The notes under the pieces are model-generated. The model saw nothing but the letters and a program-made list of their open reading frames with translations. It searched no databases and was not told the DNA's origin. Positions 2,778 through 5,107 of a stretch of DNA of 64,000 nucleotides are shown here, one piece after another (the stretch's first letter is position 1; each line of letters opens with the position of its first letter). The DNA is taken from positions 27,944 through 91,943 of the forward strand of contig JBEIPA010000021.1 of assembly GCA_040377305.1 (NCBI GenBank), given 5' to 3'. A program made the translations under genes and the position numbers. Source of the stretch: Flavobacteriales bacterium (lineage in GTDB: Bacteria > Bacteroidota > Bacteroidia > Palsa-965).

Positions 2778-2805
2778 ATATCTATCGTAATATTGCGATA
2801 GATAT
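2778..2805. promoter_or_regulatory. ArsR operator (near-perfect 28-bp palindrome)
   Basis: ATATCTATCGTAATATTGCGATAGATAT, 8 nt upstream of the arsR ATG. Confidence 0.8.
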
Positions 2806-2813
2806 CTATATCA

Positions 2814-3146
2814 ATGGGCATTTCCAAAACAGACGATTTTACGCTTAGAGAAAACAGGATTGCACGCTATGCAAAGGCGCTTGCTCACCCTGCACGCGTT
2901 GCGATCCTGAACATCCTTCTCAAAAAGCAAGCATGCATTTGTGGCGACATTGTCGACGTTCTGCCACTTTCACAGAGTACCGTCTCTCAACATCTCAAGG
3001 AATTAAAAGAAGCTGGTTTAATTCAGGGGGACACTGAAGGCGTGAAAGTGTGTTATTGCATCAACGAAGAAGGATGGACCGAAGCGAAAGAATCGTTTAA
3101 AGTGCTCTTTGATTCTTACAAAGCCGGCAGCAGTTGTTGCCGGTAG
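2814..3146 (+). CDS. arsR: ArsR/SmtB family metalloregulator
   Basis: KALAHPAR...ACICGDIV...[19 protein letters not shown] winged HTH with CxC, C-terminal SSCCR; heads an arsC-containing operon. Confidence 0.93.
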
Positions 3147-3158
3147 TTAAGTATAACA

Positions 3159-3174
3159 ATCGTAAAAAACCGAT
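3159..3174. promoter_or_regulatory. Second ArsR-box-like site ATCG-N8-CGAT
   Basis: ATCGTAAAAAACCGAT has the same half-sites and spacing as the operator core ATCGTAATATTGCGAT. Confidence 0.5.
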
Positions 3175-3177
3175 AAA

Positions 3178-3264
3178 ATGAACACTCAAAATCAAGATTG
3201 CTCCTGCGGCACTACAGTTTGCCTGCCAGGATGCTGCGGTGGTAACTCAACAGGTTGCTGCTAA
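3178..3264 (+). CDS. Small Cys-rich peptide, 28 aa (MNTQNQDCSCGTTVCLPGCCGGNSTGCC), metallothionein-like candidate
   Basis: ATG 3178 to TAA 3264 with an A-rich leader, 7 Cys; lies between arsR and the DUF6428-like gene; absent from the supplied ORF track. Confidence 0.7.
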   Translation: MNTQNQDCSCGTTVCLPGCCGGNSTGCC

Positions 3265-3271
3265 ATAGTTC

Positions 3272-3296
3272 GGAGTTGGGAGATGGGAGACGGGAG
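3272..3296. repeat. Heptamer tandem array (GGAGTTG GGAGATG GGAGACG GGAG)
   Basis: Read directly. Confidence 0.6.
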
Positions 3297-3343
3297 TACC
3301 GTTGACCATTTCCACTCCATTAAATCATTAATATTTAGTTACC

Positions 3344-3823
3344 ATGAAATTATCTGACGTAAAAACAGCATTGACAGGACTTTCCGAAGTGAATTTCCTT
3401 TTACCCGATGGAACAAAAGTTCCTGAACATTTTCACGTTACGGAAGTGGGTGCAATTTCAAAACACTTTATCGACTGTGGCGGCACGGTTCGCAAAGAGA
3501 ACGTTGTGAATTTCCAATTGTGGGAAGCGAATGATTTCGATCATCGTCTGAAGCCGCAAAAGCTTATTGACATTATTGCACTTTCTGAACGTGTACTCGG
3601 CCTCGAAGATCTCGAAGTGGAAGTAGAGTATCAGTCAAACACAATCGGAAAGTATGGTCTGAACTTCAGCAACGGAAACTTCATTCTTGAAGCGAAAACA
3701 ACCAACTGCCTGGCAACCGATAAGTGCGGAATTCCACCGGAAAAGTTGAAAGTAAGTTTGTCTTCGTTAACTCCAGCGGGTGAATCAGATGCGTGTTGCG
3801 GACCGAACTCAAAATGTTGTTAA
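3344..3823 (+). CDS. DUF6428-like protein, ars-operon associated
   Basis: VPEHFHVTEVG...FIDCGG...NFQLW...HRLKP...EVEYQ...TIGKY signature; Cys-rich tail CLATDKCG...CCGPNSKCC. Confidence 0.85.
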   Translation: MKLSDVKTALTGLSEVNFLLPDGTKVPEHFHVTEVGAISKHFIDCGGTVRKENVVNFQLWEANDFDHRLKPQKLIDIIALSERVLGLEDLEVEVEYQSNTIGKYGLNFSNGNFILEAKTTNCLATDKCGIPPEKLKVSLSSLTPAGESDACCGPNSKCC

Positions 3824-3860
3824 CTCTTAAACATCAGCTTTAGCCGGCGCTGCCGTCTTT

Positions 3861-3950
3861 GCCACAGATTCGCAGATTTCTCAGATGACGCAAATTATTT
3901 TTAGTTTAATTATTAATCTGTGAAATCAGCGTAATCAGCGAATCTGTGGT
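3861..3950. repeat. Intergenic inverted repeat built from ~9-nt CAGATT/AATCTG units
   Basis: CCACAGATTCGCAGATT ... AATCAGCGAATCTGTGG with an AT-rich spacer. Confidence 0.7.
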
Positions 3951-3992
3951 AAGGTGCCAAAGGCGCAACAGAAAACTACAAACACTGTAAGT

Positions 3993-4441: not shown

Positions 4442-5107
4442 ATGAGCAAATACGTTTCGGAGTTCATTGCAACATTCACATTGCTCCTGGCAATTCTTGA
4501 AGCAATTATTTTAACAACAGGATCATCGTACGGACTGGTGATCGTTTCATTTGTAGCCGGTGCAGGTGTTACGATTCTCATTTACGGATTCCGGAAACAT
4601 TCAGGGGCACACATGAATCCTGCAGTGAGTACAGCAATGTGGCTCGACAATCAGCTCACTACAAAAGTTTATCTCGGTTATTTTGCGGTTCAGTTGTTCG
4701 CATCGGCTGCTGCGGCATGGGTTATTGATTTCACTCATCGCGATCAGGCTTATGTGATGGGAATGACTGTGCCTTCACTTACTGAAGGTCAAGCCTGGAT
4801 ACTTGAAGCGGCGTTGACTTTTATTCTCGTGTTAGCTATTTTCCGATGCATTGATCCGGCGCGACCTAAAATGGACAAATTTCTTGCTCCGTTAATTGGC
4901 TTGATCGTATTCTTCGAAATCTATTTTGCAGGAATGTATTCGGGTGCATCCATGAATCCGGCACGCTCATTTGGACCGGCATTGATTGAGGGTAGGACTG
5001 AGTATCATTGGTTATTTTTCTCGGCGCCGGTATTTGGGGCAGCGGTTGCACGGTATTTTGATTTGATTTTCAGGAAGAAGGTGGTGGCGAACGTTGCAGG
5101 GATTTAA
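4442..5107 (+). CDS. MIP/aquaporin family channel (probable arsenite conduit)
   Basis: SGAHMNPAVS and GASMNPARSFGPA NPA boxes, six hydrophobic segments; last gene of the ars operon. Confidence 0.9.
   Translation: MSKYVSEFIATFTLLLAILEAIILTTGSSYGLVIVSFVAGAGVTILIYGFRKHSGAHMNPAVSTAMWLDNQLTTKVYLGYFAVQLFASAAAAWVIDFTHRDQAYVMGMTVPSLTEGQAWILEAALTFILVLAIFRCIDPARPKMDKFLAPLIGLIVFFEIYFAGMYSGASMNPARSFGPALIEGRTEYHWLFFSAPVFGAAVARYFDLIFRKKVVANVAGI

Follow-up and report, generated by a model that had tools for sequence, protein, structure and literature searches.

The window, as we call the whole 64,000-nt stretch analyzed here, contains a compact ars operon in which all genes lie on the forward strand. After arsR come a 28-codon ORF, a gene coding for a DUF6428 protein, an arsC-like gene, and the gene of a MIP-family channel (Table 1). 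The channel is the only exit for arsenite found in the operon, and searches of this genome found no ArsD, ArsA, ArsB, Acr3, or arsM. Two different dispersed palindromic repeats occupy spacers of the operon. Its T9SS-tail gene and its named relatives mark the host organism as a member of the Bacteroidota. Three other ars operons (loci L231, L237, and L241 of genomes G033, G030, and G034) contain, beside arsM and the aquaporin, an ORF of 253–269 aa with an SDIHANL motif at its start, which we take to be metallophosphoesterase-like.

Table 1. Features of the ars operon, numbered from the first letter of the window, and the arsR locus of genome G183
Feature	Position	Strand	Basis
ArsR operator 1, palindrome ATCG-N8-CGAT	2784..2799	.	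perfect 10-bp arms over 2778-2805; best-scoring of 83 genome sites
arsR, ArArsR-type As(III)/MAs(III)-responsive repressor, 110 aa, Cys41/43/80/82/108/109	2814..3146	+	PF01022 E 6.8e-14; NF033788 over cut-off
Operator-like palindrome 2; its end lies 3 nt from the peptide ATG	3159..3174	.	motif match; putative ArsR site
28-aa, 7-Cys peptide gene (MNTQNQDCSCGTTVCLPGCCGGNSTGCC), likely As(III)-binding, metallothionein-like	3178..3264	+	G024 ortholog, RNA-library contig variant, slot-equivalent ORFs, start context
Stem-loop 7 nt after the peptide stop; member of a dispersed REP-like repeat	3272..3318	+	-29.8 kcal/mol, z -5.2; 44 genome BLAST hits
DUF6428 protein, 159 aa, core 1-120 and low-confidence Cys-rich tail	3344..3823	+	PF20001 E 4.8e-62; model pLDDT 83
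Second long hairpin, also a dispersed repeat	3846..3958	+	z -4.6; 53 genome BLAST hits
arsC-like LMWP-family arsenate reductase, 137 aa	3993..4406	+	PF01451 E 2.3e-21; TIGR02691 156.9 bits, below cut-off 174.3
MIP-family channel (aquaporin/aquaglyceroporin)	4442..5107	+	PF00230 E 1.7e-38
G183: stand-alone arsR and 43-aa, 14-Cys ORF, directly upstream of the his operon	L338:4503-4966	-	

Repressor and Operator Sites

The repressor is of the type of ArArsR from Arsenicibacter rosenii. Cys41, Cys43, Cys80, and Cys82 are present in the repressors of all eight carriers, i.e., the genomes of the family with a Cys-rich ORF directly behind arsR, and the core of the upstream operator is identical in 16/16 bases to the ArArsR site defined with DNase I and EMSA (PMC11868830). 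In ArArsR, the As(III) site is formed by Cys41, Cys80, and Cys82, arsenite induces the operon over 150-fold, and the protein functions alone in Escherichia coli (PMC11868830). The sequence-only reading had taken an ArsR ending in CC as a hint of arsenic ligation. The protein actually ends in CCR, and the argument does not hold: ArArsR with C107S or C108S still responds to As(III), the terminal Cys pair being dispensable for sensing (PMC11868830), so that a CC end is no proof of arsenic binding.

The motif ATCG-N8-CGAT is found upstream of 117/126 arsR loci. It is also found just downstream of arsR in 103/130 of the close Bacteroidia loci, against 0/121 control windows, and it is rarer behind distant arsR genes (10/60). 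All eight carriers have the downstream copy. Since no separate promoter was found before the ORF, with no exact match to the Bacteroidota promoter motif TAnnTTTG in the gap between arsR and the ORF, the palindrome at 3159–3174 is read as a putative second repressor site on a single transcription unit. In engineered biosensors, a second ArsR site after arsR lowers the background, according to the available part of PMC3918153. The second-best operator-like palindrome of the genome (G000:C9:114017) lies away from any ars gene and is likely due to chance.

A Small Cysteine-Rich Gene behind arsR

The sequence-only reading placed a 28-aa, 7-Cys peptide gene on the operon strand between arsR and the DUF6428-like gene. 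The ORF is there, running from ATG to TAA with two CC pairs, as the second cistron of the operon, 31 nt behind arsR. There is very little doubt that it is a real gene. Genome G024 has an ortholog of 26 aa, shorter by two 3-nt deletions, that keeps each of the seven Cys; apart from the deletions, it differs by four synonymous substitutions and two replaced amino acids. Between the two genomes, 77 bases match within the ORF, compared with only 43 in the 79-nt spacer that follows it. A contig from a soil RNA library spans positions 2837–3282 of the window. Its differences in the ORF are four synonymous changes at third codon positions, the replacement of one codon, and three net losses of 3 nt (two of them drawn as 2+1 by the aligner), none of which hits a Cys codon. 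It is the single contig covering the ORF, has a low depth (4.6), and comes from a relative, and its library origin alone does not establish transcription. A second contig of the same run departs from the window at the operator and then has an ATG-led stretch with a similar start. There were nine RNA runs, all with a small share (at best 5%–7% of words) and none from the host organism; among the seven that were compared, one contig covers the ORF, two reach the region of its start, and the others do neither, uncovered parts and contig ends not being counted as evidence. All observed indels in the ORF are net in-frame, and the changes are mostly synonymous.

Start contexts were scored with a matrix trained on 1,307 gene starts of this genome, chosen heuristically. 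The ORF ranks at the 91st percentile of those starts and at the very top of internal ATGs (100.0th percentile), with the A-rich operator adding to the score. The starts of all eight ORFs of the family outscore 99% of internal ATGs, and those of seven other intergenic Cys-rich small ORFs of this genome reach only the 1st to 35th percentile. The slot itself is not prone to such ORFs: of the 3,473 genes in this genome that code for 150 aa or more, none is followed by an ORF of 20–75 aa with at least seven and at least 19% Cys that starts within 100 nt of the gene stop. Nine distinct peptides are absent from a collection of 15 billion proteins by exact look-up, and the DUF6428 protein and the ArsR of the window are present there; the peptide of G183, a genome of another family, is one of the nine, and its absence says little because the G183 ArsR used as a control is also absent. 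Together with the G024 ortholog, this upholds the proposal of a conserved Cys-rich gene that gene callers miss.

A Cys-rich ORF lies directly behind arsR in 8/30 arsR loci of the family, which come from 29 of 35 genomes and leave 21 genomes as non-carriers. The unpublished G008, a non-carrier on which no positive claim depends, is counted among the 30 loci, the 35 genomes, and the 21 non-carriers. The ORFs have 26–60 aa and 7–18 Cys (aa/Cys: G000, the genome of the window, 28/7; G024, 26/7; G011, 36/7; G025, 31/10; G006, 44/14; G033, 27/8; G012, 49/17; G010, 60/18), and the other 22 loci lack them. Outside the family, they are almost absent. They were found in 0/78 arsR-DUF6428 loci of named genomes (79 loci after removal of L011, a duplicate of G024, one of them without arsR), in 0/98 metagenome and class-level loci with 150 nt or more of downstream sequence (98 of 102), and in 1/60 further class-level loci, giving 1/236 in a total that was not de-duplicated.

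In a quick tree of ArsR, built on few columns and without a test for a single clade, five carriers form a supported clade together with two ORF-less metagenome loci (L123 and L124), and G033, G012, and G010 lie elsewhere, in unresolved parts. Five of the eight cases are therefore not independent, and such a tree makes repeated origin a suggestion only. The patchy spread possibly reflects repeated gain or repeated loss. The ORF is dispensable, since 22/30 loci in the family and 235/236 outside lack it, including L123 and L124 of the same clade.

Homology searches recover little. With the window peptide, phmmer matched only G024 among the 35 genomes, and a profile of the eight peptides matched 1/35 genomes and missed its own members. 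A search of 5.8 billion proteins scored 0/16 candidates, and the ESM Atlas gave no usable match for the 31-aa relative. These blanks reflect the low sensitivity of such searches for short low-complexity peptides rather than absence, and the family was found by its position behind arsR. The pattern of an operator followed by ATG has no match in viral contigs; over 401 genomes it is noisy, and none of the 30 loci read has a Cys-rich ORF. A search of plasmids gave just one partial arsR match, and Rfam nothing meaningful.

The nine peptides contain 29.7% Cys overall (19%–35% in each of the nine), arranged in part as CC and CxC motifs. Asn, Gly, Thr, and Ser are abundant in them, and hydrophobic residues are almost absent. 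Phe, Trp, and Tyr make up 0.3% each and Pro 2%, and no peptide has a hydrophobic stretch or a signal peptide. Seven of the eight family peptides end in CC. His ligands and a zinc-finger core are features of the BmtA/SmtA family and are not seen here, where there is one His in 344 residues; none of the eight family peptides matches a Pfam family at E up to 10, and none of the nine matches the NCBIfam metallothionein models or has a sequence match in the PDB. All nine do show the hallmarks of functional metallothioneins (small, gene-encoded, Cys-rich, with CC, CxC, or CxxC motifs and few aromatics), a class definition taken partly from the accessible text of PMC12193353. Hence, by the tests run, the peptides belong neither to the BmtA/SmtA family nor to ArsD; they are likely cytoplasmic and metallothionein-like by composition, and selection seems to act on the number and spacing of Cys rather than on sequence, the relatives varying so widely in length and Cys content. 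A class IIb bacteriocin or RiPP precursor was considered and rejected: 1/9 peptides matches TIGR03949, at 14.3 bits under a cut-off of 21.5, and no genes for bacteriocin or RiPP transport or modification are found among the ORF neighbors. A read-through fusion with ArsR was also rejected, as the gap between arsR and the ORF varies modulo 3.

Neighboring Genes, Hairpins, and Arsenite Exit

The gene after the ORF is DUF6428 in two loci, arsC in one, arsM in three, and an aquaporin in two, so there is no fixed partner. In G010 (L233), a GTG located 5 nt behind the stop of the 60-aa ORF is the apparent start of the aquaporin gene; the longest ATG-led ORF of the aquaporin covers only the second half of the protein, and the gene may be interrupted. 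The sequence-only reading stressed the resemblance between the end of the peptide and that of the next protein. The DUF6428 protein does end in CCGPNSKCC, but a special link between the two does not survive the comparison across loci, where the next gene varies and CC-x2-6-CC tails occur in 60/102 DUF6428 and 49/67 ArsM proteins. The likeness is shared chemistry in a generic motif. The DNA of the ORF is no more similar to that of its neighbor than synonymous shuffles are (score 20 versus a mean of 20.3), and a derivation from the tail of DUF6428 or ArsM, which was also considered, is undetected at the DNA level. The DUF6428 protein has a confidently modeled 120-residue core with invariant His29, His31, Glu34, Cys45, and His67, and searches with its predicted fold gave no clear match (no Foldseek hit at E < 0.001; best Z 3.2). 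It is possibly a metal-dependent ars protein of a fold yet to be described. DUF6428 is mentioned in one paper, in whose available part it figures as a protein of unknown function beside ars genes (PMC13707694).

In 7/8 family loci, a strong stem-loop (z −4.5 to −7.3) starts 2–9 nt after the ORF stop, and these stem-loops are unrelated in sequence; G010 has none after its peptide ORF. In the window, the hairpin is a dispersed repeat and not an evident attenuator. A comparable hairpin is found in 96/406 co-directional spacers of this genome, and in none of the seven loci does the ORF pair with either arm beyond what synonymous shuffles do (p 0.10–0.92). In the window, 25 nt separate the end of the stem from the following ATG, compared with 6–8 nt in two relatives. 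Folding alone is blind to opening driven by ribosomes. The hairpin is likely a 3′ stabilizer or a leaky terminator that would raise the output of peptide, which is simpler than an attenuator.

Genome G183 has a repressor 52% identical to ArsR, with an operator, followed by an ORF of 43 aa and 14 Cys. Downstream come a hairpin, a His-rich leader, a terminator, and hisG, and there may be read-through from the arsR-ORF pair into the his operon. Besides this pair, no ars gene is found in 9.5 kb, Acr3 and ArsM were not found in the genome, which is 99% complete, and an arsC-like gene lies on another contig. An arsenite sensor thus has the peptide as its only evident cargo, which suggests that the peptide is the working part, as in SmtB-SmtA, and the locus favors an effector over a leader peptide.

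An Acr3 match is found in 5/35 family genomes and ArsB in 0/35. All six carrier operons that are readable far enough contain an aquaporin. Acr3 is absent from the eight carriers (0/8) and present in 4/21 non-carriers, a difference that is not significant (one-sided p about 0.25, calculated by hand) because most non-carriers of the family are pump-less too. With 30/35 family genomes lacking an Acr3 match and all lacking ArsB, most ars operons use the aquaporin, in what looks like a lineage-wide AqpS-like strategy. Channel systems of the AqpS kind protect from arsenite made inside the cell and leave cells sensitive to arsenite from outside, as far as the available part of PMC6205960 goes. Such sensitivity gives a reason for an inducible sink.

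Interpretation and Comparison with Known Systems

The peptide is probably a metallothionein-like buffer of As(III) in the cytoplasm, induced through ArsR. The locus has an ArArsR-type repressor, an upstream operator with the published core sequence, and another operator-like site just before the peptide start; if the protein behaves as its published homolog does, As(III) or MAs(III) would free both sites and the operon would be transcribed. The strong start context and the stem-loop after the stop may then yield more peptide than downstream enzymes. By three-thiolate chemistry, the unstructured peptide would wrap As(III) made by ArsC or leaking in and would hold it until it leaves through the aquaporin or, where ArsM is present, is methylated. 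As As(III) takes three thiolates (PMC11868830), the seven thiols are predicted to bind about two As(III). Such a stoichiometric sink would blunt transients rather than give high-level resistance. The earlier proposal was of a peptide that sequesters or shuttles arsenic: sequestration appears the best reading of the sequences, aided by the arsR-plus-peptide locus of G183, and the part concerning an ArsD-type chaperone is unsupported. ArsD (PF06953) is found in 0/5 genomes and ArsA (TIGR04291) exceeds the cut-off in 0/5, which removes the ArsD-ArsA analogy.

This absence also bears on the idea that the peptide is a carrier, taking up the As(III) that ArsC makes and delivering it to the aquaporin, ArsM, or DUF6428 much as a free Cys-pair tail would. 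The many Cys-pair tails on DUF6428 and ArsM, and a peptide co-encoded with ArsC and an aquaporin in most readable loci, agree with a relay; we consider it unlikely, given the lack of a constant partner, a G183 locus without any ars partner, and no conserved surface beyond Cys. It is improbable that the ORF acts instead in cis as a leader, with ribosomes stalling at Cys codons, or an As-bound nascent chain at its CC end and stop, opening a hairpin that limits the downstream ars genes. The hairpin does lie within the ribosome footprint, nearly all family peptides end in CC, and two consecutive Cys codons suffice in mycobacteria, according to the accessible part of 10.1101/834739. Against this, the hairpin is a repeat with many copies and many like it, G010 does without one, the ORF pairs with neither arm beyond shuffles and is a second cistron rather than a leaderless first ORF, the his operon of G183 has its own His leader and terminator, and length and Cys number scale as one would expect of a ligand, not of a switch.

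The constant position directly behind arsR, kept even where the peptide stands alone, might point to a modulator of ArsR that adjusts at what level the repressor responds, or how it resets, by contact or by competition for As(III), and any inducible sink is inherently a negative feedback. Yet the ArsR proteins of G000, G011, G024, and G025 are 95%–98% identical and their peptides differ widely, which fits no specific contact; with no constant reading frame relative to arsR, and with ArArsR working alone in E. coli (PMC11868830), this role is quite improbable. We give very little weight to a general buffer of thiols or soft metals (Zn, Cd, Cu, or oxidative stress) that sits on the arsenic regulon without selectivity for arsenic. 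Arsenite stress oxidizes thiols, which speaks for such a buffer, and thiol-rich peptides of this sort would also bind Zn, Cd, Cu, or Sb; bacterial Zn metallothioneins use His, however, of which there is almost none here, and every instance of the ORF found lies behind an As-type repressor that has its operator. The metallothionein-like composition (PMC12193353, in the part available) agrees with a general buffer. The least credible account is that the ORF is a chance ORF or a non-functional remnant of a duplicated or deleted ars gene with a Cys tail. Its patchy presence, and starts and CC ends resembling those of ArsM, are what one would expect of a remnant, but in-frame indels, mostly synonymous changes, intact arsM genes after the ORF in three loci, DNA similarity to neighbors no higher than in shuffles, and empty control slots are not.

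In the literature searched, mainly open-access and in main texts, no description of a Cys-rich peptide gene in a bacterial ars operon was found, the words "metallothionein" and "peptide" are absent from a review of prokaryotic ars genes, and intracellular chelation is listed as a eukaryotic route in PMC11868830. The case seems evenly balanced for a broader claim: that bacteria have a gene-encoded, arsenite-inducible chelation arm, made of hypervariable Cys micro-peptides invisible to gene callers that arose more than once behind As(III)-sensing ArsR proteins, serve as dedicated arsenic metallothioneins above all in lineages with passive channels only, and make up, in one genome or more, a two-gene module of sensor plus sponge. 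Known bacterial defenses against arsenic are reduction, efflux, methylation, and oxidation; a chelating peptide under ArsR control, if true, would add a missing class of ars gene and explain how pump-less ars operons cope with arsenite. It would also provide natural As binders of 26–60 aa for biosorption work, which now uses heterologous metallothioneins or disarmed ArsR, as stated in the available part of PMC12871311.

Among known systems, the ArarsRMC operon of A. rosenii SM-1 (PMC11868830) has the same repressor Cys (41/43/80/82) and terminal CC, an identical 16-bp operator core, and arsC and often arsM downstream. Neither a small ORF nor a further operator behind arsR is described in the main text of that paper. 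The operon of the window differs by having the peptide, DUF6428, and the aquaporin as well, and by having no arsM. An operator copy after arsR is shared with the engineered biosensors of PMC3918153 (as described in its accessible part), with the difference that the putative operator here is natural and found in most close Bacteroidia loci, so that nature mirrors an engineering trick for sensing arsenic. The aqpS-arsC operon of Sinorhizobium meliloti likewise combines ArsR and ArsC with a channel that replaces the pump, and, unlike here, the available part of PMC6205960 describes no Cys-rich peptide. With ArsD the peptide shares vicinal Cys pairs and a place in ars operons; it is a quarter of the size of that chaperone (about 120 aa), has no PF06953 match, and lacks an ArsA over the cut-off in the genomes tested.

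The mycobacterial attenuators with polycysteine sORFs (10.1101/834739) and CutF (PMC9973294), in so far as the accessible parts of these sources describe them, also combine a short Cys ORF, a close stem-loop, and further genes, and the two CC pairs here match the attenuator trait of at least two consecutive Cys codons. Unlike those attenuators, the ORF is not leaderless, the genes downstream are ars genes rather than genes of Cys metabolism, and the hairpin is a repeat without alternative pairing in the predicted folds; unlike CutF, the peptide has neither a signal peptide nor a Pro-rich C-terminal stall motif. A further parallel is with SmtB-SmtA and other bacterial metallothioneins (BmtA, PmtA, and MymT), which, in the available part of PMC12193353, are small gene-encoded Cys-rich peptides with CC and CxC motifs that a metalloregulator of the ArsR/SmtB family controls. 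There the inducer is Zn, Cd, or Cu, and here, by analogy with ArArsR, it would be As(III); the peptides described here match no Pfam or NCBIfam model, have 26–60 aa with nearly no His or aromatics, and are predicted to be co-transcribed inside an ars operon.
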